Part shown: piece by piece, positions 12,836 to 61,947 of the stretch
Layout: each line of letters begins with the position of its first letter
How positions within the stretch are numbered: the first letter of the stretch is position 1
NCBI GenBank assembly: GCA_965287045.1
Contig: OZ336890.1
Coordinates: 22,568,001 to 22,632,000 of the forward strand
Source: Carcharhinus amblyrhynchos
Lineage: Eukaryota
Reading direction: 5' to 3'
Length of the DNA: 64,000 nt
The notes under the pieces: generated by a model
What the model was told of the DNA's origin: nothing
Databases searched by the model: none
Seen by the model: the letters and a program-made list of their open reading frames with translations, nothing else
Position numbers and translations under genes: made by a program

Positions 12836-13186
12836 TGTGACGTTTGTTGTAATGTGCCTTTAAGGAATAGCAGCATGCCATCACTTTAAGGGAAACTCAT
12901 GTGATCCAGTCCCAGTTTCACTGNNNNNNNNNNNNNNNNNNNNNNNNNNNNNNNNNNNNNNNNNNNNNNNNNNNNNNNNNNNNNNNNNNNNNNNNNNNNN
13001 NNNNNNNNNNNNNNNNNNNNNNNNNNNNNNNNNNNNNNNNNNNNNNNNNNNNNNNNNNNNNNTTCTCAAGCTTTCAGTCCCTGTCTACCTGTTCACTTTC
13101 TTAGAGTCAATAAATGAACCCACAATGTGTGTGTTCAATTATGTATGAGCGATTTGTGCCTTTATATCATGATGACACACTGAACA
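12836..13186 (+). mobile_element. Probable solo LTR spanning an assembly gap
   Basis: It begins TG at 12836 and ends CA at 13186. A 4-bp direct repeat ACAT flanks it (12832-12835 and 13187-13190), and AATAAA lies at 13109-13114. Confidence 0.5.
12924..13062. other. Assembly gap (139 N)
   Basis: Run of N characters. Confidence 1.
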
Positions 13187-16839: not shown

Positions 16840-16967
16840 GAGGAAAACATCTTTGTGGTTTTACGTGTGCAGATAAACCCAGAGCCACATTGAAGCATGT
16901 GGATCTATATGGTGTATCCCAAATGGTCAGAGAGATTTGTTTTATGGATTCGTGAGGTTAGTTTATG

Positions 16968-18370
16968 AAAAGGAGATAGAGAATCTGGTGATCAAGAAGG
17001 CGAATGGAATGCTAGCCTTTATAGCGAGGAGGATAGAATATAAAAGTAGGGAGGTCTTGCTGCAACTGTGCAGGGTACTGGTGAGGCCACAGCTGGAGTA
17101 CTGTGTGCAGCTTTGGTCGCTGCACTTGCACAAGGATATTTTGGCCTTGGAGGGAGTGCAGAGGAGGTTCACTAGGCTGATACCGGAGATGAGGGAGTTG
17201 GACTATGAAGACAGACTAAATAGACTGGGTTTGCACTCATTGGAGTTTAGAAGGATGAGGGGGGATCTTATAGAGACGTATAAGGTAGTGAAAGGGATGG
17301 ATAGGGTAGAGGTCGAGAGATTTTTCCCTCTTAGAAAGGATAACAGGACTAGAGGGCACAGCCTCAAGATAAGGGGGGGGGGGCGCAGTTTAGATCGGAG
17401 TTGAGGAGGAACTTCTTCACTCAAAGAGTGGTGAATCTCTGGAATTCTCTGCCCATTGAAGTGGTGGAGGCTAAATATATTCACTTAATATATTTAAGTC
17501 ACGGGTAAATAGGTTTTTGACAGACAAGGGAATTAAGGGTTATGGGGAGAAAGCAGGAAAGTGGAACTGATCCACTTCAGATCAGCCATGATCTTATTGA
17601 ATGGTGGAGCAGGCTAGATGGCCTACTCCTGCTCCTATTTCTTATGTTCTTATGGTGAACTGGTGCAGCAAAAATAATCTCTTCCTCAGTGTCAACAACA
17701 CAAAGGAGATTGTCATCAATTTCGAAAAGCATAAAGGAAAACTTGCCCCTGTCTACATCAATGGGGATGAAGTAGAAAAGATCAAGAGCTTCAAGATTTT
17801 AAGTGTCCAAATCACCAATAATCTGTTCCAGTCCCCCCATGTGAACACTATAGTTAAGAAAGCTTACCAATGCCTTTACTTTCTCAGAAGACAAAGGAAA
17901 TTTGGCATATCAGTTACTTTTAAAGGTGCACCATAGAAAGCATTCTTTCTGGTTGTATCACAGCTCTGCTCAAGGTTGCAAGAAGTACAAAAGGTCGTAA
18001 ATGTAGCCCAATCCATCATGCAAACCAGCCTCCCATTCATTGACTCTGTCTACACTTCCTGCTGACTTGGCAAAGCAGCCAGCATAATTAAGGACCCGAT
18101 GCACCCTGGACACTCTCTCTTCCATCGGATAAAAGATACACAAGTCTGAGGTCACATACCAACCGACTCAAGAACAACTTCTTCCCTGGTGCTGTCAGAC
18201 TTTTGAATGGACTTACCTTGCATTAAGTTGATCTTTCTCTACGCCCTAGCCATGACTGTAACATTATATTCTGCAATCTCTCATGAACAGTATGTTTTGT
18301 CTGCATTGCACACAAGAAACAATACTTTTCATTGTATGTTAATACATGTGACAATAATAAGTCAAATCAA
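16968..18370 (+). mobile_element. Rex1/Babar-type LINE 3' fragment, split by a CR1 insertion
   Basis: It encodes EIENLV|NWCSKNNLFLSVNNTKEIVINF...VKKAYQCLYFLRR. The 3' UTR ends CATGTGACAATAATAAGTCAAATCAAA. Confidence 0.85.
16992..17652 (+). mobile_element. CR1 LINE 3' end (RT C-terminus plus 3' UTR)
   Basis: It encodes KKANGMLAFIARRIEYKSREVLLQLCRVLVRPQLEYCVQLWS...RRMRGDLIETYK...TRGHSLKI and ends with the tail CCTACTCCTGCTCCTATTTCTTATGTTCTTA. TGGTGA direct repeats flank it. Confidence 0.95.
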
Positions 18371-19339
18371 AGGTGCCTTCCAAATATTCAATATAGAAAT
18401 AAAAAGCAGTGTAAAGTGCAAATGTATGTAGTGCTGAATAATATTCAAGTATTTTACACATTTAGAAATCGTGAAAGCAAATCAGAGGGTTGGATGTTTG
18501 GAAGTGAGGGTGTTTGTAAACTGCAGCAGCTGGCAAAATTGTCACCTTTCTGCAATCCCCCCCCCGAGTCTCTCACAGGGTTGGGAGGACTGTGGAAGTA
18601 TTGAGTGGTCTGCTCACCCTTGGGCCTATTGAGACTCTTGGCCACTTAAACGACTCACTCCATCCATGTTGCTCTTTTATCCACCCATGGCAAGTGGATA
18701 AGCTTTCAGTTTTTACTGGGCAAGCTGGTATAGGCCAAAGAGGAGGGGGTGGTGTGGGAAACCATTTGTGGAAGTTTCCCTGTGCCTGGCTGAGGCCTCC
18801 CCAAGAGCATACACTCCATTTTAACCACCGTTTCTCCCATCCTCCTCTAAACCAGGCCCACTACTTCCCTCAGCCCCTTCTTTGAGGCCTACCATCCAGC
18901 CCCTGCTGATACCCCAGCCTTACCTGACCTCCGGCTTCTGTAACTTTCTTCTTCAGGAACTGCCTGAAGTCCCAACAGTGACCACTGCATGAACCTGGCA
19001 CTGCTGTAAGGTGGGACTTCCCTCTTGGGAGTCTCAGCCTGAGCCAATGAACACTCCAGGCATGGAATAACTGACATTTTCATGGATGGGCTCTCAATCG
19101 ACATTTTAGTTGGGTGAGCAGGAAGCATGGTGCCTAATGTTTATTTTTGTAGTTGAATTTGCTGCTGAATTCTCTCTCTAGCTTCAGTCCCTCATGTTAG
19201 AAAAAGTAGTCTTGCAACCGGTCCCCAGCCAAGGTCTCCAGATAGGTTACCCTAGACGATGTTCCTTAATTTGTCACCCTCCACCCCACTGAGGGAAATA
19301 TCTCAACACGAGCTCCAATTTGTTAATTTTCCCAATGGG

Positions 19340-23811: not shown

Positions 23812-24570
23812 AAAACAAAAAGAATAATTTGCATGTATATGGCAAGTTTTAAACCACTAAATATATTAAATCATCCACAGGAGGTGACAAGATTTTTTTA
23901 AGCAAAATTTGATATCGAGCCACATAAAGTGATATTAAGATAGATGTTCTGAAGGTTAGTGAAAGAAGTAGGCTTTAAGAAACACCGTAAAGAAAGAGAG
24001 ATGGAGAGGCTTAGGGTAATCCCAGAACTGGAGACATGACCAGCAATGGTGGAGTGATTAAAATTGTCTCAAAAGGCCAGAGTAAAAGGAACATCAATAT
24101 TTTATATAGAAACATAGAAGCAGGAGGAGGCCATTTGGCCCTTCAAATCTGCTCTGCAATTCATCATGATCATGGCTGATCATCCAACTCAATAGTCTAA
24201 TCCTGCTTTCTCCCCATAACCTTTGATCCCAGTTGCCCCAAGTGCTACATTTAGCTGCCTTTTGAATACATTCAAGGTTTTGGCATCAACTACTTCTTGT
24301 GGTAATAAACTCCACAGGCTCACCACTCTTTGGGTGAAGAAATGTCTCCTCACCTCTGTCCTAAATGATTTCCCTAACCCTCAGACTGTGACCCCTGGTG
24401 TTTGGAGGGTTGTGGGGCTGGAAATGATTACAGAGATGGGGAGTGATCAGGCTATGAAGTTATTTTGAAAAAAAGGGATTTTTTTAAATCAATGTCTGAC
24501 TTGGCCAATGTAGGTCAGCAAGCAGAGGGAAGATGGATGATCAAGACCTAGTGCAGGTAAGGACATAGAC
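23812..24570 (-). mobile_element. L2 LINE 3' end, interrupted by CR1
   Basis: TTTGCATGTATATGGC...AAATTTGATATCGAGCCACATAA...AATGGTGGAGTGATTAAAATT continues after 24400 as GGAGGGTTGTGGGGCTGG...GCCAATGTAGGTCAGCAAGCA. It is similar to 52480-52910 and 54790-54880. Confidence 0.7.
24106..24400 (-). mobile_element. CR1 LINE 3' end
   Basis: It has the tail ATAGAAACATAGAAGCAGGAGGAGGCCATTTGGCCC and CACCACTCTTTGGGTGAAGAAATG. It is the same subfamily as 61477-61947. Confidence 0.88.
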
Positions 24571-26408: not shown

Positions 26409-26729
26409 GAATCAGAGAATAGAATCATAGAATTCCTACGGTGCAGATGGAGGCCATTTGGCCCTTTGAGCCTGTACTGACAACAATCCCACCCAGGCCC
26501 TATCCCCGTAACTCTACGTTCCCCTGACACTGAGGGGCAATTTAGCATGACTAATCAGCCTAACCTGCACATCTTTCAAGTTTGGGAGAAAATGGAAGCA
26601 CCCAGAGGAAACCCAAGCAGTCATGGGGAGAATGTGCAAACTCCACACAGACAATCACCTGAAGCCGGAATTGAACCCGGGTCCCTGGCGCTGTGAGGCA
26701 GCGGTGCTAACCACTGTGCCACTGTGCTG
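26409..26729 (-). mobile_element. HE1-like V-SINE with a CR1-type tail
   Basis: It has a tRNA head and V-domain. The tail (reverse strand ...GGGCCAAATGGCCTCCATCTGCACCGTAGGAATTCTATGATTCT) matches CR1 3' ends. Confidence 0.9.
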
Positions 26730-27899
26730 TCACTAAATAATTTATTCAATTATATTTAAATGTTCATTTACATGATTTTAGTGAGCCCAACACTCAATCG
26801 TCCAGGCTCATTTGTCTTTATGGCCTCACTGGGAGATTTCCTCTCCAGTGAGGAAAACACCTGCTCCCTGAATGGGGGGATGGAGGGGGCGTAGTAGTCA
26901 TGTTCCCCTTGCAGGTAGAACCAGAGGCCATTGAGGCCCCCCGGAAGGGCTGAGGCTAGTTCCTTCCTGGCAAGTTAAGCACCACCTTATGCCTCAGTTA
27001 ACTAGAAACGATCTAACTCATTTCTTCATGCACTATGTGCACAAAATTGAGAGTAAAAACTTGCCCAAAAAACAAATCTGTAACATTCCCATTTTCTCAC
27101 AAAATTCCGTCCTAAGATTCATTGAATGTACTGTGAATTGATGCAGATGGGGATCTCTTAAATGGGGATTCTGATCACTTTTGAGTGATCAGAATGAATT
27201 TAATTGTATGTTAAAACTACAGGCTTTTGAGTCTGCACCCTGACATCTGGGTTAAGTAAGAATCTCTATCTTGCACTGTGTGGGGAACAGTTGCCTGGCA
27301 ATGATCTTTTTCCCAAATTGGCAATTATCAGCCAGAGAACACATTTGCCTCCCAATTATTGATAGTGGGCAAGGCTCTTGAAGCTGGATGGTCAATAGGA
27401 ATTACTCCAGTGTAGAAAACATTGCATCTTGCCACTTCAATTAAAATTGCAGATATGATCAGAAATGCTGTCCTACCTCTGGTCTGCTATCAGGATTCTC
27501 CTTCGGGCAACTGACATTATATCAGGTACCTCTGGGCCCAGAGGATGACTGTGAAATTCCAATCAGCCTCTGACATTTGGCTTTAATAGTTCCTTTATCC
27601 ACCTGAATTAGCCACCTTTTGTGTGCTGATTCCACCTCTGGGGAAAAAGGCCTAGAGATTAGATGGTTCTGGTGAAGGTTTCAGTGGTTGTGACGTGAAA
27701 TTTGATGTCCATCTGCTGCCATGGAGGTTGAAAATTGTGCCCATTCTGTGAAATATTGGGTAGTTACTGGTGCCAGTGTTCTGGCAGCAGTAACTGGGGC
27801 AGAATAGGACTGCAGTGCATTATTTTTACTCTCACCAACAGAGGGAAAAAGAACTTTTAATTTGGTGCTCTTGCTCTTTGAAAGTGATCTGATACCTTT

Positions 27900-28105: not shown

Positions 28106-28792
28106 TTTTGTGGGATGAAAGTTGTATAATATTCAGGAAACCAGTTCTGGGTCCCAGCTGTATCATATTAAGCAAGTTGCCCAAAGAACATTGTTTAGTT
28201 TGGGGACAAGGAAGAAAGGAAGCTTTATGTAGCTTATCATTGCCATCCATACTTTAGAAAAGTGAAATCTTAGCAGTGAAAGGAAACAGTCCATATTTAA
28301 AACACTTGTTCATCTTTTGTGTAGGTGTGTTCAAGCAATTAAGTGCAAAGGTTTCCCAAAGGTGCTTGTCAAATCCTGCTTTTTTTCAATTTCCAAAATG
28401 TAATTTATTTTCCAGTTTCCGTTCACCAGAAGCTTATACTTTCAAGTGAAATACAGCTCAAAATTTCTACCCTGGAAGACAACGCTCTGTTACATCAATG
28501 TTCTATCTCCAGTTCCTGTATTCTTGCAGATATTTTGTTGGCAGTATAAACAAGATTTCTTTTATGTTTTATTATACTGGAACTATACTGATTTGCTCCA
28601 GACTTGTTTTTCTTTGGAATTTGTGATATTGGCCTATTAAGTATCGTTTATCTTCCACAAATATTTCTTCTACAATCTTTTACTGTGAAGTCTATGTTAA
28701 AAAGGGACAACTGATTGACAGAAGCAGTTGTCTCGATAAACCATGACAAGTGAAATATTAGGCTGCCACTGATTTATTGTGGTTTTCTTTGG

Positions 28793-28879
28793 AACTCACC
28801 TGATGAAGGAGCAGCATTTCGAAACCTCGTAATTCCAAATAAATCTGTTGGACTTTAACCTGGTGTTGTGAACTTCTTA
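28793..28879 (+). mobile_element. Penelope-like terminal-repeat fragment with a degenerate hammerhead ribozyme motif
   Basis: CTCAC-CTGATGA-A-GGAGC-AGC-ATTTC-GAAA-CCTCGT...AATAAATCTGTTGGACTTTAACCTGGTGTTGTG is clearly homologous to 38031-38125. Confidence 0.75.
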
Positions 28880-33310: not shown

Positions 33311-34231
33311 TGGGCAGAAATCTTCCAAGAAACAGCTAAGTGTCATAATGATGAGAATAATGGGGGAGCCCATCTTGGTCTAACAATGGTGCTCTGCATT
33401 GCAACCTTCCCACACTCAGTCACTTTTTTCAGAGAGTTTGGAGTTTTGCACCAAGATTGGGAGTGGGGGTTGTGTGGTGGTGGGGGGGAGGGGCAAAGGA
33501 CAAAGGTGTCTCAATCTTTCAGTGCACGGGGATATCCTCTGTTCTCCCACGAACATCCAACTCCACCTTCCCCACCACTCAGCTATCCCCACAGCCACCT
33601 CCATTGGCAGCATGTTCCCCCAACCCAATATGGGTCGCCAGCATTGGGCCCTCCTGACCAGTCCCCCTGCCTGACCCCCAATATGCACCCCCCAACCCCC
33701 ATTCTTGACCCCAGTTGTGGTCCACCCCTGCACAACACCCTCTGCATAGCCCCCCTGTCATAACCCCAGTCAGGCCCAATGTCCTTGACATTGCCCCTGC
33801 TACTCTTGTGGTGCCCAACTGGCACTGCTGGAGTGTCTGGTGGCCACTGCTGGAGTGTCCTATGGGCACCACCAGTGGCCATGCCCCTGACTACCCAGAG
33901 GCTTCAATGGCCTCTGACCCCACCGGCATGGCCATTGCATCAAGTCTCCTCTAGTGCAGACTGGTGGTGATTCTCACTGTTTGCACTCAAAGGCCAGAGA
34001 ATCCCATGCATGAGGAGTCAAATGGGCTGTGTGCATTTAAATACCATTTTAAATATGCTAATCAACCTGAAGCCCTTTCTGGGTGTGACCCGGTCCCTGC
34101 CATTAGAAAGGGGCTAGGTGGATTGCAAACTGCTTGGCACCGGCCACAAAACCAATATTTAGGTCCATACGCTATTCCTTAGATCGATGTGATCTACGCC
34201 CGTTGCAGCGAGGTCAGTGAATCACTCCCTG
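33311..34231. mobile_element. Non-autonomous Harbinger-like element
   Basis: It starts GGGCAGAAATCTTCC...CTAAGTGTC, like 63793. The interior is C-rich and it ends GAATCACTCCC. Confidence 0.45.
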
Positions 34232-35592: not shown

Positions 35593-36420
35593 GATTTAAT
35601 GCCCCCCCCCGCCAACCTTCCCAGAGTCCTTGGTCCCTATCTTCCTCCAACTCTTGCCCCTTCCCTTAAAACTGTCTCCCCACCACCTCCCCCCGCCCCC
35701 CCAATGACACATGCTCTCTCTTATGCCCCCTCCAATAATATCATACAAGGGCGATATGCCCGGATTGACAGTGTCTCAAGACAGGATGACAATTTGTTGT
35801 GAAAGAAGTTGCGGTGCTCTTCACATTTTGTTGAAGTCAATGTAGGACCTCTGACTACAAGAATCCATGACATCGTTACCCCGCCCCCCGCAACCACCCT
35901 TCCCACCAGCCCATTAGCTTGACTGTCCAGCCTTGACTATATGAGTGACATACAGCCACCCTCTTGGGCTGGAAAGCTTCAAGCTTTACACTCCCTCCCG
36001 CCCAGATCCCGCAGGCCAGTGACAGCATCAAGGTGGTTTGGCTCATCACTGTGGCACTCATACAGAGATTTCTTGAGACTCTGAAGGAATCCTCATTGTG
36101 GGACCCTTGAGCCTTTTTGCCTGAGCTGCAGCAGATACTTTTGTGGTGGAGATGTAATAGTTTTCCAGGCATGGGACTCTTTCAGAAGAGGTTGAATTGA
36201 GGTTACTGCCAAACAATTGATGTCATTTAAAGATTTCTGCCATTTTATGAAGCTTGGCAGAATGAAAAAAAATAAAGTAGTGAGGGAAACATGCGGTTTT
36301 GTAAAGCTTATTGATTTTTGTCAGAAGCTTTGCTGGCAAGGGAAAAAAAGCCTGTTAAAAAGAAAGTAATATTAGAAAGTATATTGGCTTTCTAGGAAGA
36401 TTCAGAGACCTGAAAAAAAA

Positions 36421-36714
36421 GTGGCACAGTAGTTAGCACTGTTGCCTCATAGCGCCAAGAAGCTGGGTTCGATTCTGGCTTGGGTCACTATCTGTGTGAA
36501 GTTTGCACATTCTCCCCGTGTTTGCATGGGTTTCCTCCAACAGTCCAAAGATGTGTGGGTCAGGTGGATTAGCTATGCTTAATTGCCCCTTAGTGTCAGG
36601 AGGACCAGCTTGGGTAAATGAATGGAGTTATGGGGATAGGGCTGGGATGGGATTGTGGCCGATGCAGACTCGATGGGCCAAAAAGCCTCTTTCTGCACTG
36701 CGTGATTCAATAGA
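36421..36714 (+). mobile_element. HE1-like V-SINE with a CR1-type tail
   Basis: It has the head GTGGCACAGTAGTTAGCACTG...GGGTTCGATTC, the V-domain, and the tail GACTCGATGGGCCAAAAAGCCTCTTTCTGCACTG. Confidence 0.9.
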
Positions 36715-37956
36715 GTTGAAAAAAGGAGCTGGAGAGAAAAGACTAGATTTAATGGAACATGGACTGGTTGTATCAACAATGCGATCTGTGAACTCTCCAG
36801 GATGTGTCAATCAGCCTTATAAAACTTAATGGAGCAGAAGGTAATTGTATAAACAAACAATAATACCTCTGCTGAAGTAGCACCTCCTGTCAATCAAAGC
36901 AGTTCAAAAAGATCTGCTAACAGCTAAGGCTTATGAGAGAAAGCAAGTGGGATCTCCCTTTTGAAATAGATTGCTGCTATTATTACTAACACTTCGAAGA
37001 GGTCTGCTAATACCTGGGACTTATGACATCAATGAAGGGCAATCCCTACATAAGAATGGTCTACTGCTGTTATTTAAATGTTCATGGGGCATGGATTTTA
37101 ATGTGACCAGGCAACTTCAAGGCTAATACAGAAAACATACAATTTAACCAGAAAGGTGCCTGAAATTTACCATCCTGAGATTGAGTTTTCCAAGGCAGCA
37201 ACCCCGATCCCGGTGAAGAACCATGAGATCAACCCCTCCCTCCATCTCAAGCCCCAGGTCTTTTGAGGCAACACCCCTCCCCAGCAACTGTACAGCCCAT
37301 GGACAGCTCTGACAGAAAGTTAAATGTTGAACGTACCTCCTGGTTCCACCTTGGAGCCCATGTCACTGATGAGATTGAAATAGGTGCTCATGAGTTCTGA
37401 TCAGATTCTTTTCTGGACGAAAACCTGATCTCGACGCGGGAGTGAGACTAGAGACTTGCAACAGGTTTGATACCTGGCAAGAATCCCATTTTGGTCCTCG
37501 CACCCAATTAAAAGGGCCACTGGGAATCCCAGCTGGGGTTACTAACCCTGGAGAATCACCCCTATACTTGTTTAATGTCTTAACCAATCAATAATCCAAT
37601 GCCACATATATACCTTACAACACACTTCCACAAATTGAAATCTTTTCAACAAACAGTCTACACTCAGTCCTATATTCCAGTGGATTCACCTCTCCCGTTT
37701 TGCTGAGCCATGACGTCCAGTGATTGTTGAAGTCTTCCCCTCAGTCTCCTGAAAATTTCAGGACTTACTTTCAGCAGTAAGGCCTAATCCAATGATTCCT
37801 CCTTCCAGTCTCACCAGGGTGAATTTTCAAATATCCTTAAATCATTGTGTGTTACTTTTTGACAGTAGACAAACCTTCAAAAGACTGGGAATAATTTCCC
37901 CTGTAAGAAGTCTCACAACACCAGGTTAAAGTCCAGCAGGTTTATTTGGTAGCATA

Positions 37957-37999
37957 CGCCACTAGCTTTTGGGGCTTTTCCCCTTCGTCAGGCGAGTGG
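37957..37999 (-). ncRNA. Hammerhead ribozyme motif with a core mutation (G12 to A), probably inactive
   Basis: The reverse strand reads CUCGC-CUGACGA-A-GGGG-AAAAG-CCCC-AAAA-GCUAGUGG. GAAA has become AAAA through a C-to-T change at 37970 in a CpG. Confidence 0.6.
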
Positions 38000-38030
38000 G
38001 GAGTTCAGATCACAAACAGGTCAGAACTCC

Positions 38031-38073
38031 CCACTCACCTGACGAAGGGGAAAAGCCCCGAAAGCTAGTGGTG
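38031..38073 (+). ncRNA. Minimal type I hammerhead ribozyme
   Basis: The motif comprises CUGACGA (38039-38045), an extra A, stem II GGGG/CCCC with loop AAAAG, GAAA (38060-38063), palindromic AGCU as a minimal stem III, cleavage triplet CUA (cut after 38067), and stem I UCAC/GUGG. Confidence 0.75.
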
Positions 38074-38681
38074 TTTGCTACCAATTAAACCTGTTGGACT
38101 TTAACCTGGTGTTGTGAGACTTCTTTACCACAGTCCAACATCAGCATCTCCACACCACAATAATTTCCCCAGCATTCTTTCTGGGAACAGATAGGCAAAA
38201 CAATCTTCCTTTTCCTCAACAAACTACAGCAACTGCTGTTCCTTGTCTGTCTGCCTATCTGTCTCTTTCTTTCTCTCTCTAATTGTTGCAGTTCAAACTC
38301 TCTGAGACTAAAAAGTCTTGCAATAACAAGAACATTTGCTTCTGCCTTTGTTTTCAGGTGTTAAATCTGGCAGCTGCGTTTCAATTAAACATGACCTGGG
38401 CCCCTATTCTTCATGATTAACAAGCCAGGCAGGCTTGTTATCAGGTAGAACTCATAGCAGATCACATGCCTCTCTTCACTACTCAATTTTACCTTTAATT
38501 AAAGAGATAATCATCTTATAAAACCTCATATTTATAAATACATCACTATTCATTTGGATTATAATTGTAATCCAATTTTTATTTTCCAATTAAAAACATC
38601 ATTTCAGCCTTCAAACTGTGACAACATTGGGTTGCGTAACCAAGATCAGAATAATCTCTTACATTATGGTTACTTTTAAGG

Positions 38682-38976
38682 TGATTTGATTTATTATTGT
38701 CACATGTATTAGTATAGAGTGAAAAGTGTTGTTCCTTGTGAGCTATATAGACAAAGTATACCGTACATAGAGCAGCAAAGGAGAGAGTACAGAATGCAGT
38801 GTTACGGTCATAGCTAGGGTGTAGAGAAAGATCAACTTAATGTGAAGTAGGTCCATTCAAAAGTCTGATGGTAGCAGGGAAGAAGCAGTTCATAAGTCGA
38901 TTGGCATGTCTCCTCAAACTTTTGTAACTTTTTCCCAATGGACGAAGGTGGAAGAGAGAATGTCTGGGGTGCATGG
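38682..38976 (-). mobile_element. Rex1/Babar-type LINE 3' end
   Basis: It has the tail GATTTGATTTATTATTGTCACATG. The ORF HPRHSLFHLRPLGKSYKSL...CFFPATIRLLN is homologous to 18100-18370. Confidence 0.85.
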
Positions 38977-42945: not shown

Positions 42946-43355
42946 ATCTGGAGCGTAGAAGGCTGAGGGGCAATCTTATAGAGGTCATCTATAAACTAAT
43001 GAGGGGCATAGAACCGCTAGATAGTCAATATCTTGTCCCAAAGGTAGGGGAGTCTAACACTAGAGGGCATAGGTTTAAGGTGAGAGGGGAGAGATACAAA
43101 AGTGTCCAGAGGGGCAATTTTTTCACTCAGAGGGTGGTGAGTGGCTGGAGCAAACTGCCAGAGGTAGTAGTGGAGGCAGGTACAATTTTGTCTTTTAAAA
43201 AGCATTGAGACAGATACATGAGTAAGATCGGTATAAGGGGATATGGACCAAATGCGGGCAATTAGGATTAGCTTCAGGGTTTTAAAAAAAGAGTGGCAAG
43301 TTGGGCCAAAGGGCCTGTTTCCATGCTGTTAATCTCTATTACTCTATGACTCTAT
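42946..43355 (+). mobile_element. CR1 LINE 3' end
   Basis: It encodes LERRRLRGNLIEV.YKLMRG...TRGHRFKVRGERY...FFTQRVVSGWSKLPEVVVEAGTI and has the tail GGGCCTGTTTCCATGCTG...CTCTATGACTCTAT. Confidence 0.92.
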
Positions 43356-43932: not shown

Positions 43933-44418
43933 GATTTGATTTAATTTAATTTATTATTGTCAAATGTATTAACATACCGTGAAAAGTATTGTTTCTTGCA
44001 CAAAATGCAGCAAAACATACCATTCATAGAGAAAGAAATGTAATGTTATAGTCATAACTAGTAGAGAAAAATCAACTTAATGCAAGGTAGGTCCATTCAA
44101 AAGTCTGACAGCAGCATGGAAGGAGCTGTTCTTGAGTCAGTTGGTACATGACCACAGACTTTTGTATCTTTTTCCCAATGGAAGCAGGCGGAAGAGAGAG
44201 AATATCCGGACTGCATGGGGTCCTTAATTATGCTGGCTGCTTTGCCGAGGCAGCAGGAAGTGTAGACAGGGTCAATGGATGGGAGGCTGCTTTGCGTGAT
44301 AGACTGGGCCAGGTTCACCATTCTTTGTAATTTCTTGCGGTCTTGGGCAGAGCAAGAGCCTTACCAAACTGTGATAGAACCAGAAAGAATGGTTTCTATG
44401 GTGCATCTGTAAAAGTTG
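43933..44418 (-). mobile_element. Rex1/Babar-type LINE 3' end
   Basis: It has the tail GATTTGATTTAATTTAATTTATTATTGTC. The ORF AQSITQSSLPSIDPVYTSCCLGKAASIIKDP is homologous to 17930-18370. Confidence 0.88.
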
Positions 44419-47633: not shown

Positions 47634-47674
47634 CAATAAGAGATGCGACTGATTCTTGCTTTCAGCCAGTCATT

Positions 47675-47970
47675 TAGTCATAGAGGTTTACAGCATGGAA
47701 ACAGGTTCTTGAGTCCAATTTGTCCATGCTGCCCAATTTTTACCATTAAAGTAGTCCCAATTGCCCGTGTTTGGCCCGAATCCCTCTATGCCATTCTTAC
47801 CCATGTAACTGACTAAATGCTTTTTAAAAGACAAAGTTGTACCTGCCTCAAGTGCAACTTCTGACAGCCCGTTCTAGACATTCACTACCTTCTGTGTGGA
47901 AAAAATTGCCCCTCTGGACCCTTTTGTATCTCTCCCATCTCACCTTAAACCTATGCCTCTAGTTTTAGAC
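47675..47970 (-). mobile_element. CR1 LINE 3' end
   Basis: It is the reverse complement of the 43050-43355 subfamily (AAATTGCCCCTCTGGACCCTTTTGTATCTCTCCC...AAACCTATGCCTCTAG). Confidence 0.88.
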
Positions 47971-48449
47971 TAGAGTCATTTTGGAGTCTTTTGAGGCCCC
48001 TTTCCTGGTGTCTTTCATTGCCCACTGGAGGTCTTTCAGTACCCCCATCTTAGAGGACTTTTACTGCCTACTCTGAATCTGGAATTGCCTCTTGCTTGCA
48101 GGCAGGCTGCTCTGAGCTCCAGAATTGTCCTTTCTTGAGGTCTGAATTTCTTCCTTTATGACATTGCATTGCCTGTTTCTTGAGTCTTAATTTGCTTTGT
48201 GAGATCTCGTGTTGGTTACAGACTTGCTTTTTAAGAGTTGCCCTCACCTGGAAGTCTTCTCTGATTTACCTGCCCCTTGTCCTTTGTTCCATCTTATGGT
48301 TGTTGCATTAAATATTGTAAAATTTTAACTTTTTTTTAATCACTTTAACATTTTCAACTACAGTTTCTCTTTGTCTGTGCTTTCCCTTCGCTTTTGCAAT
48401 TTGATGGGAAAGTACAGCTCCTTTTTTTTGTTGGACCCTTTGTAAACTG

Positions 48450-51553: not shown

Positions 51554-51872
51554 ATAGAATCATAGAATCACGACAGTGCAGAAGGAGGCCATTCAGCTCA
51601 TCAGGCCTGTACCGACAACAATCCCACCTAGGCCCTATCCCCGTAACCCCACATATTTACTCTGCTAATTCACTGACACTAACGGACAATTTAGCGTGGC
51701 CAACCCACCTAACTTGCAAATCTGTGGACTGTGGGAGGAAACTGGAACACCCAGAGGAAACCCATGCAAATGTGAGGAGAATATGCAAACTCCACACAGA
51801 CAGTGACCTGAGGCTGGAATTGAACCCAAATCAATAGTGCTGTGAAGCAGCAGTGCTAACCACTGTACCACT
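51554..51872 (-). mobile_element. HE1-like V-SINE with a CR1-type tail
   Basis: It has the tail ATAGAATCATAGAATC...GCAGAAGGAGGCCATTC, the V-domain, and the tRNA head CAGCAGTGCTAACCACTGTACCAC. Confidence 0.9.
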
Positions 51873-52199
51873 CTAGCGCTCATTCACACGGGATTTAAAC
51901 CTAGATTTGAAGCAAATGTTTGAAACCTCTGCACCAGTTAGGTGCATTGTAATTACTGATGATTCATTAGATTTGTACATCCAATTTACGTAACCAACTC
52001 TACAGATAGAATACATTTGTACAACTTTTGTTGTGGAGAGTGATGTATGTTCTAAGGTATAATGTTCTACTTTGATAATGTCATGTTTGCAAAACGCTGC
52101 CTGAGATAGTCATTTCCACGTCCAATATCATTTCAGCTCCTTATCTCCCAAACAGCAGTATGAGCTGTGTGCCTAATCAATAGTGAGTTTTGTGTTATC

Positions 52200-60319: not shown

Positions 60320-60840
60320 CCTTGCATTAAGTTGATTTTTCTCTACACTTTTTTTATTCATTTGTGGGACATGGGCATCACTAGCTGGCCAGCATTTATT
60401 GCCCATCCCTAGTTGCCCTTGTTCAGAGGGCAGTTGAGAGTCAACCACATTGCTGTGGCTCTGAAGTCACATGTAGGCCAGACCAGGTAAGGACGGCAAA
60501 TTTCCTTCCCTAAAGGACATTAGTGAACCGGATGGGTTTTTCCGACAATTGACAATGGTTTCATCAATAGATTCTTAATTCCAGATTTTTTTTATTGAAT
60601 TCAAATTCCACCAGCTGTCATGGTAGGACTTGAACCTGGTCCCCAGAAATTAGCTGAGTTTCTGGATTAATAGTCTAGCAATAATACCACTAGGCCATCG
60701 CATCCTGGTGATGACTGTAACACTACGTTTTGCACTTTCTTGGTTCCTCCTCTATGAAAGGTATGCTTTGTCTGTATAGCGTGCAAGAAACAATACTTTT
60801 CACTGTATGCTAATACATGTGAATAATAAAACAAATCAAA
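60320..60840 (+). mobile_element. Rex1/Babar LINE 3' UTR split by a SINE
   Basis: CCTTGCATTAAGTTGATTTTTCTCTACAC, then the SINE, then ATGACTGTAACAC...CAAGAAACAATACTTTTCACTG...CATGTGAATAATAAAACAAATCAAA. This is colinear with 18216-18370. Confidence 0.8.
60349..60705 (-). mobile_element. tRNA-derived SINE (family 'B'), full length
   Basis: It has a poly-T end, the body CACATGTAGGCCAGACCAGGTAAGGACGGC...CCCTAAAGGACATTAGTGAACC, and the head ATACCACTAGGCCATCGC. Confidence 0.9.
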
Positions 60841-61476: not shown

Positions 61477-61947
61477 ACATAGCAACATAGAAACATGGAA
61501 GATAGGAGCAAGAGGAGGCCATTTGGCCCTTTGTGCCTGCTTTACCATTCATCACGATCATGGCTGATCGTCCAACTCAATAGCCTAATCCTACTTTCTC
61601 CCCGTAACCTTTGATCCCACTCGCCTCAAGTCCTATATCTAGTCACCTCTTGAACACATTTAATATTTTGGCATCAACTACTTCCTGTGGTAATGAATTC
61701 CACAAGATCATCACTCTTTGGGTGAGGAAATGTCTCCTCATCTCCACCCTAAATGGTCTACCTCGAATCCTCAGACTGTGACCTCTGGTTCTGGACACAC
61801 CCACCACCGGGAACATCCTCCCTGCATCTACCCTTTCGAGCCCTGGTAAAATTTTATAACTCTCTATGAGATTCCCTGCTTATTCTTCTAGTCTCAAGCA
61901 AAAACAACCCTAACCTGGTCAACCTCTCCTCAAACATCAATCTCGCC
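61477..61947 (-). mobile_element. CR1 LINE 3' end
   Basis: It has the tail ACATAGCAACATAGAAACAT...GGAGGCCATTTGGCCC and is the same subfamily as 24106-24400. Confidence 0.9.

Follow-up and report, generated by a model that had tools for sequence, protein, structure and literature searches.

A hammerhead-bearing hairpin in the genome of Carcharhinus amblyrhynchos, probably left by a truncated head-to-head Penelope-like insertion

Penelope-like elements and related systems

Penelope-like elements (PLEs) typically carry an inverted, 5'-truncated copy and a 30–40-bp tail at one end (PMC8557442), and inverted terminal repeats (pLTRs) with a 31-bp tail, target site duplications (TSDs) of 8–10 bp and mostly head-to-head junctions have been reported (PMC3846280). 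Dual minimal hammerheads approximately 100–700 bp apart on opposite strands have also been described, and scattered motifs of this type were linked to truncated PLEs (PMC4209133). The minimal PLE hammerhead has an additional nucleotide that separates position 9 from 10.1, a G10.1–C11.1 pair and a palindrome that replaces stem III, and such motifs need dimers and cleave poorly (PMC4209133). In vitro, a PLE protein in purified form nicks the two strands of the target and extends them, with a preference for ATT, and reverse transcription starts at two internal sites which bound the tail and lie in an AC-rich stem-loop; the protein is predicted to be dimeric and hammerhead cleavage is not needed (PMC11167929). 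Here and below, statements on published work refer to the portions of the cited papers used for this comparison.

We analyzed a hairpin unit located at 37890–38170 of a 64,000-nt stretch of C. amblyrhynchos DNA (the window). This unit is probably a dead, one-off insertion made by a PLE reverse transcriptase (RT)/GIY-YIG endonuclease protein, in which the terminal repeat stands twice head-to-head, and the hairpin is most likely an ordinary PLE-type scar and not a novel type of mobile RNA.

The EN+ PLEs (Penelope/Poseidon, Neptune and Nematis, e.g., Pen2a_Av; PMC3846280, PMC8557442) share with the hairpin the head-to-head inverted, 5'-truncated copy, a 30–40-nt tail at one end, a short TSD, an A+T-rich target and unequal truncation; the inverted copy is present in the hairpin in head-to-head orientation, and the tail at one end only is present by position (33 nt). 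The hairpin differs from them in having no ORF and only approximately 120–140 nt of terminal repeat per arm, and its TSD measures 12 bp vs. 8–10 bp in rotifer PLEs. The dual hammerheads of Schistosoma mansoni (PMC4209133) resemble the hairpin in their two close minimal type I motifs on opposite strands, with the extra nucleotide 9/10.1, the G10.1–C11.1 pair and the palindromic 15.2–16.2 positions. However, the cores of the hairpin lie approximately 50 nt apart compared to 100–700 bp in that study, stem II has 4 bp instead of the 7–8 bp of the families described there, and one core is mutated.

Poseidon_Ac (PAc) from Anolis carolinensis (PMC11167929) likewise carries a hammerhead upstream of an AC-rich region and, compared by description only, is further similar in the distance of approximately 112 nt between the tail end and the point where stem II starts and in an ATT at one target edge; the PAc ORF starts at stem II, whereas no open frame starts there in the hairpin. 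Non-LTR retrozymes (PMC7229834; bioRxiv 10.64898/2026.07.22.740005) are, as the hairpin is, short, non-coding, pLTR-related and equipped with a type I hammerhead. They differ in that their units stand head-to-tail in tandem, with at least two ribozymes on the same strand, and yield circular RNA, whereas the hairpin is a single inverted pair with one intact core. It falls outside the retrozyme definition, which asks for two or more head-to-tail units that all possess a complete hammerhead on the same strand.

Anatomy of the hairpin unit and its hammerhead motifs

Identical 12-mers at 37890–37901 and 38159–38170 form a 12-bp TSD that encloses 257 nt. Within the window, an exact 12-mer recurring at a spacing of 240–300 nt was found at 2 of 63,500 positions. 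The TSD is short and the site A+T-rich, particularly in the left half of the left 12-mer, whose outer edge on the minus strand ends in ATT, the motif that the anole PLE cleaves in vitro (PMC11167929). The arms (37905–38006 and 38024–38125) are 102 nt long with 6 mismatches, and can be extended inwards to 105 nt with 7 mismatches; a TSD intact at 12 of 12 positions is compatible with this 7/105 arm divergence (probability 0.44). Seventeen nucleotides separate the arms, and a 33-nt tail (38126–38158) without a partner is present on one side only. The coordinates given by the earlier, sequence-only reading were thus reproduced, as were its perfect TSD, its 102-bp arms with 6 mismatches and its one-sided tail. 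Its 17-nt spacer kept its length but lost its standing as a dedicated sequence, since 38007–38020 continue the left copy and 38021–38023 begin the right one.

On the top strand, the unit is predicted to fold into a hairpin of -200 kcal/mol (z -29), a stability matched by none of 200 shuffles, and it is the only one of the 16 inverted pairs in the window longer than 31 nt. Another of the inverted features, a 31-nt pair with 74% identity at 33805–33875, contains a repeated 13-mer and sits in a G+C-richer stretch at approximately 32–36 kb with many overlapping short open frames.

The two copies of the repeat end are unequal. The left copy (37902–38020, minus strand) bears no tail and is truncated at its 5' side 29 nt upstream of the hammerhead C3; its last 3 nt (37902–37904) are out of pairing register with the right arm, and its extra 5' reach constitutes the unmirrored 11 nt at 38010–38020 (minus strand), in the loop region of the hairpin. 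The right copy (38021–38158, plus strand) is truncated 17–18 nt upstream of C3 and bears the tail on the plus strand, which measures 33 nt, or 30 nt if the last 3 nt of the left copy are counted as arm. A or C occupies 26 of the 33 tail positions. The tail is unpaired in the top-strand fold of the whole unit. It folds back weakly on 38106–38121 (z -1.75; 11 of 200 shuffles equally good), and the inner end, i.e., that of the left copy, falls inside the loop of this weak stem-loop. We infer that the tail is element sequence, spanned by neither of the two further copies of the repeat described below. The reconstructed empty target (37883–37901 joined to 38171–38172) is an imperfect palindrome around an A+T core, with the TSD off-centre, which may be due to chance or may suit a dimeric endonuclease.

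Long inverted arms flanked by a TSD could also denote a MITE or fold-back DNA transposon whose hammerhead-like motif is incidental. We regard this as very improbable: the arms do not reach the TSD at both ends, being offset by 33 nt on the right, the repeat occurs singly elsewhere and its breakpoints vary, and the unit shows the four minimal-hammerhead features of PLEs.

Hammerheads were called by means of a motif scan together with the published minimal-hammerhead features. The core scan (up to one mismatch) returned 11 candidates, among which both boxes were intact in only two, at 38039 and at 28800, both on the plus strand. The first belongs to an intact minimal type I hammerhead in the right arm (38032–38073, plus strand), with CUGACGA at 38039–45, GAAA at 38060–63 and a predicted cut after 38067. 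It has a bulged stem I, an extra A at 38046, a 4-bp stem II with G10.1–C11.1 and a palindromic AGCU that replaces stem III, so that the extra nucleotide 9/10.1, the G10.1–C11.1 pair and the palindromic 15.2–16.2 positions of the minimal PLE hammerhead are all found in this copy.

The left arm contains a mutated minimal type I motif (37960–37994, minus strand). Its core (37991–37967) reads AAAA for GAAA, the changed position, 37970, being a CpG site where G12 is replaced by A. G12 of the hammerhead is the catalytic general base, and the motif is predicted to be inactive, although the left arm probably also had a working-type core at the time of insertion. The claim that each arm has CUGACGA, stem II and GAAA is hence true for the right arm (38039–38063, plus strand) but not for the left one, which has AAAA, and the ribozymes proposed on both strands are not there today, given the change of G12 in the left core.

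No Rfam family matched at its gathering score in the whole window, and none of the 14 sub-threshold Rfam matches at 37700–38400 was to a hammerhead model; these 14 were discarded as mostly miRNA-precursor models, which match any long hairpin. Across the three copies present in the window, 20 of 21 stem cells pair. Stem II covariation amounted to one compensatory pair in three sequences, and was not significant (158 of 500 shuffles as high).

In the whole unit, imposing helices I and II was calculated to cost 62.8 kcal/mol on the top strand and 62.2 kcal/mol on the bottom strand, compared to 4.5 kcal/mol for the isolated right copy. A transcript of the whole unit would, according to these fold models, be a duplex rather than a ribozyme, and the hammerheads appear to be passengers of the insertion. 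Downstream of the core, an AATAAA hexamer situated approximately 15–22 nt after GAAA is kept in the left copy (37941–37946, minus strand) and in a lone copy of the repeat (28838–28843, plus strand), and the corresponding region of the right copy (38083–38089, plus strand) is one base off AATAAA; it is possible that this hexamer is the polyadenylation signal of the parent element.

These features bear on the idea of a retrozyme-like element which cleaves itself on either strand and passes through a circular RNA stage. The right arm does hold one intact type I core, and PLE pLTRs are the origin of non-LTR retrozymes, which have been detected in one chondrichthyan (bioRxiv 10.64898/2026.07.22.740005). 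However, there is at most one core per strand, the left one without G12; the copies are inverted, with no tandem units; without a stem III, a partner on the same strand would be needed (PMC4209133); and the folding costs above, 62.8 and 62.2 vs. 4.5 kcal/mol, argue against cleavage of the full unit, as far as modeled. We give this reading hardly any credence. The fixed-structure, retrozyme-like hairpin family of the sequence-only reading is likewise not supported, in view of the lone arm, the mutated core, the burial of the other core in a duplex of approximately 105 bp and the inverted arrangement of the copies, since non-LTR retrozymes require tandem ones.

Further copies of the repeat

A search of the window with an arm profile yielded three matches above threshold, i.e., the two arms and a lone copy at 28789–28879 (plus strand); the profile was built from these same three copies. 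The lone copy is identical to either arm at 69 of 85 aligned nt, its core boxes are intact and its match starts approximately 6 nt upstream of C3. It is a single arm with no inverted partner, no tail and no convincing TSD, and its end lies within approximately 3 nt of the end position of the left copy. Candidates for a remnant inverted arm and a tail beside it were rejected, as 32 of 293 and 12 of 295 random windows, respectively, scored equally, and so were nhmmer matches near 60623, 60945, 18185 and 58371, which were below threshold (E 0.7 or worse). The stem II common to both hairpin arms is absent from the lone copy, which has a different one, and the lone copy also does without 7 nt that the hairpin arms carry after the cleavage site. 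These two differences indicate, at the sequence level, that at least two subfamilies of the repeat are present in the genome.

A further copy was read through a peptide. A phmmer search of 1.84 billion protein representatives with a non-coding frame of the unit (37907–38065, plus strand) gave 5 hits. One of them, P0004, aligned over 44 residues with 28 identities; it is an open frame that arose by chance on a single contig of 934 nt, from another locus. Its residues 74–111 match the left copy, and residues 125–151 match the sense strand of the same repeat. Treated as degenerate DNA, P0004 folds on itself with a score of 74.1 (best of 200 shuffles, 19.9) around a single best mirror axis (24.7 vs. 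-13.6 for the next one), and is mirrored to approximately 41 nt upstream of C3 on both arms, leaving up to 19 nt unmirrored. The two arms of P0004 differ from each other, 1 position being incompatible among the 50 pairs listed, and no tail is apparent at its outer end (a score reached by 55 of 200 shuffles). As judged from this peptide, P0004 represents a second head-to-head insertion of the repeat family, while its inverted arrangement, known from a single contig, may be an assembly artefact.

P0004 also clarified the nature of the spacer. Positions 38007–38020 are compatible with its antisense arm at 12 of 14 positions, so the spacer is family sequence; the 10 bases after 38020 fit the antisense continuation at 3 of 10 positions and the sense arm at 9 of 10. 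The remaining phmmer hits (P0001–3 and P0005), in which 5–9 short segments of long proteins were matched, were dismissed as repeat artefacts. No candidates came from word-indexed protein searches with two non-coding frames; when residues 74–151 of P0004 were used, one of two candidates passed, which was P0004 itself. No usable match was obtained in the protein atlas. Protein sets hold spurious open frames from animal repeat DNA, and are usable as indirect evidence on repeat junctions.

The 5' truncation varies between the window arms, P0004 and the lone copy. Upstream of C3, the hairpin copies reach 29 and 17–18 nt, and P0004 reaches approximately 41 and 41 nt or more, in a comparison with one copy at a peptide resolution of approximately ±3 nt, with a different stem II and on a contig whose species may not be that of the host. 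The sequence-only reading had taken differing inversion breakpoints as the mark of ordinary PLE truncation rather than of a family, and the one other inverted copy, single and read from a peptide, does differ (approximately 41 nt on both arms vs. 29/18).

These results were also relevant to a dedicated non-autonomous family, in which one master with this junction would be mobilized in trans as a fixed 257-nt unit with the tail as signal. Being unpaired in the top-strand fold, the tail would be open to recognition; for mobilization in trans, pLTR sequences are sufficient in cis (PMC3846280), and non-autonomous PLE derivatives exist (PMC8557442). Nevertheless, P0004 inverts at other positions, the repeat also exists as a lone arm, both outer ends are those expected from fresh cDNA starts, and no second copy of the junction was found in the window or in the protein sets. 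We therefore consider such a family improbable. Neither of the two other copies, the lone copy and P0004, shares the junction, and both have another stem II. Because the comparison copies differ in this way, a hairpin family confined to one subfamily retains a small chance: the subfamily with this stem II might have spawned a fixed-junction hairpin unit which was re-mobilized via its unpaired tail, a fold-back 'MITE' of PLEs. If so, transcripts of the unit would be 105-bp duplexes over the ribozyme region of the parent, on both strands, and could silence it. No fixed hairpin PLE family is described in the titles or abstracts of the openly accessible literature searched, and the discovery of a family with a fixed junction would add a new type of non-autonomous retroelement.

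With regard to the parent element, no RT or GIY-YIG Pfam family was detected in any of the 145 window frames of at least 75 aa, or in any of approximately 117–118 shorter frames at 27.5–47.5 kb, and Pfam revealed no host exon near the unit in the same frame sets. The assignment to PLEs rests on anatomy because no autonomous parent was found; on that basis, the strongly truncated, inverted PLE insertion made in one event, which the sequence-only reading had offered as one of its options, fits every tested feature. Presumably, the repeat forms the terminus of a PLE that is abundant in elasmobranchs. Bacterial and archaeal genomes gave no match for a 25-mer of the repeat, and five matches of an 18-mer there were discarded as chance, covering only 18–23 nt in BLASTN. 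No match to the repeat was present in plasmids and phages, two 16-mers of the arm were absent from the main texts of the literature searched, and the searchable part of the supplement of PMC4209133 contains no shark terms.

Insertion mechanism and surroundings of the unit

The left copy has 11 nt extra at its 5' side and the right copy 30–33 nt extra at its 3' side. Since each copy holds sequence that the other lacks, neither is a simple copy of the other, and both were templated from something longer. Twin priming of both target nicks, which we infer with a slightly better than even chance, is favoured over the fold-back alternative discussed below.

In a twin-priming event, the PLE protein, probably as a dimer, would nick both strands 12 bp apart and thereby provide two 3' ends. 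The top-strand primer would start at the inner site and give rise to the left arm without a tail, and the bottom-strand primer, which ends in ATT, would start at the outer site and give rise to the tail and the right arm. Both cDNAs would stop at 120–140 nt, just past the hammerhead, and be joined end to end, after which repair would yield the inverted repeat and the TSD. Later divergence would have affected 7 of 105 arm positions, one change removing G12 from the left core.

The tail end lies 112 nt from where stem II starts, and one of the two published start sites is located 111–118 nt from the start of stem II (PMC11167929). The tail-less end recurs as well, the lone copy ending within approximately 3 nt of it. 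Only one of the two putative nicks has an ATT, the top-strand nick being without it, and no in vivo twin priming was found in the portions of the cited PLE papers used here. L1 twin-priming inversions are comparable, as they have an inverted junction within one TSD, produced by two primed cDNAs. The hairpin shares this inverted junction in one TSD. In L1, the arms are copied from separate, non-overlapping portions of a single RNA and terminate in poly(A), whereas the hairpin arms overlap almost fully and have no poly(A).

Alternatively, the antisense strand, either RNA or first cDNA, might have looped back at the junction and been copied on itself to form a hairpin intermediate, with the endonuclease trimming one end 30–40 nt in and so leaving the tail on one side. 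Self-priming on an antisense template has been proposed for head-to-head junctions (PMC3846280) and the tail has been attributed to endonuclease resolution (PMC8557442). In line with this, the strand that begins as antisense continues as antisense through the loop, which this model requires, and a small stem closes a 7-nt loop. However, the fold-back at the junction (38020|38021) pairs just 2 bp, one of them a G–T wobble, and among the 4 nt that precede the junction only 1 agrees with the sense arm. Further, a strand primed at the left nick begins from the site that lacks the tail, which means that copying it would yield a tail only with an extra trimming step, and two start sites account for the tail in the later in vitro study (PMC11167929). 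Fold-back self-priming is thus a possible but rather doubtful route.

Within 281 bp, the hairpin compactly records the two ends and the two truncation points of a single PLE insertion together with its target duplication. Should mini-insertions of this kind prove numerous in the genome, their junctions, TSD lengths and mismatches between arm subfamilies could separate twin priming from fold-back self-priming in vivo.

Lastly, several other features were recorded in the window. An assembly gap of 139 N spans 12925–13063. Two plus-strand open frames lie at 16877–17404, with no Pfam or PDB match, and at 17601–17936, which matches Pfam ALKBH8_N (E 2.4e-6); both resemble C-terminal ends of LINE reverse transcriptases of the CR1/L2 type. 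At least five dispersed repeat families (66–85% identity) are present, probably SINEs and LINE 3' ends: one at 17916–18371, 38682–38976, 43940–44416 and 60711–60840; a second at 1986–2334 and 60349–60705; a third at 24111–24399 and 61499–61789; a fourth at 26419–26736, 36420–36711 and 51554–51875; and a fifth at 43051–43351 and 47668–47971. The repeats neighbouring the hairpin are, we assume, shark-like, and one dispersed repeat starts approximately 510 nt to the right of the unit.
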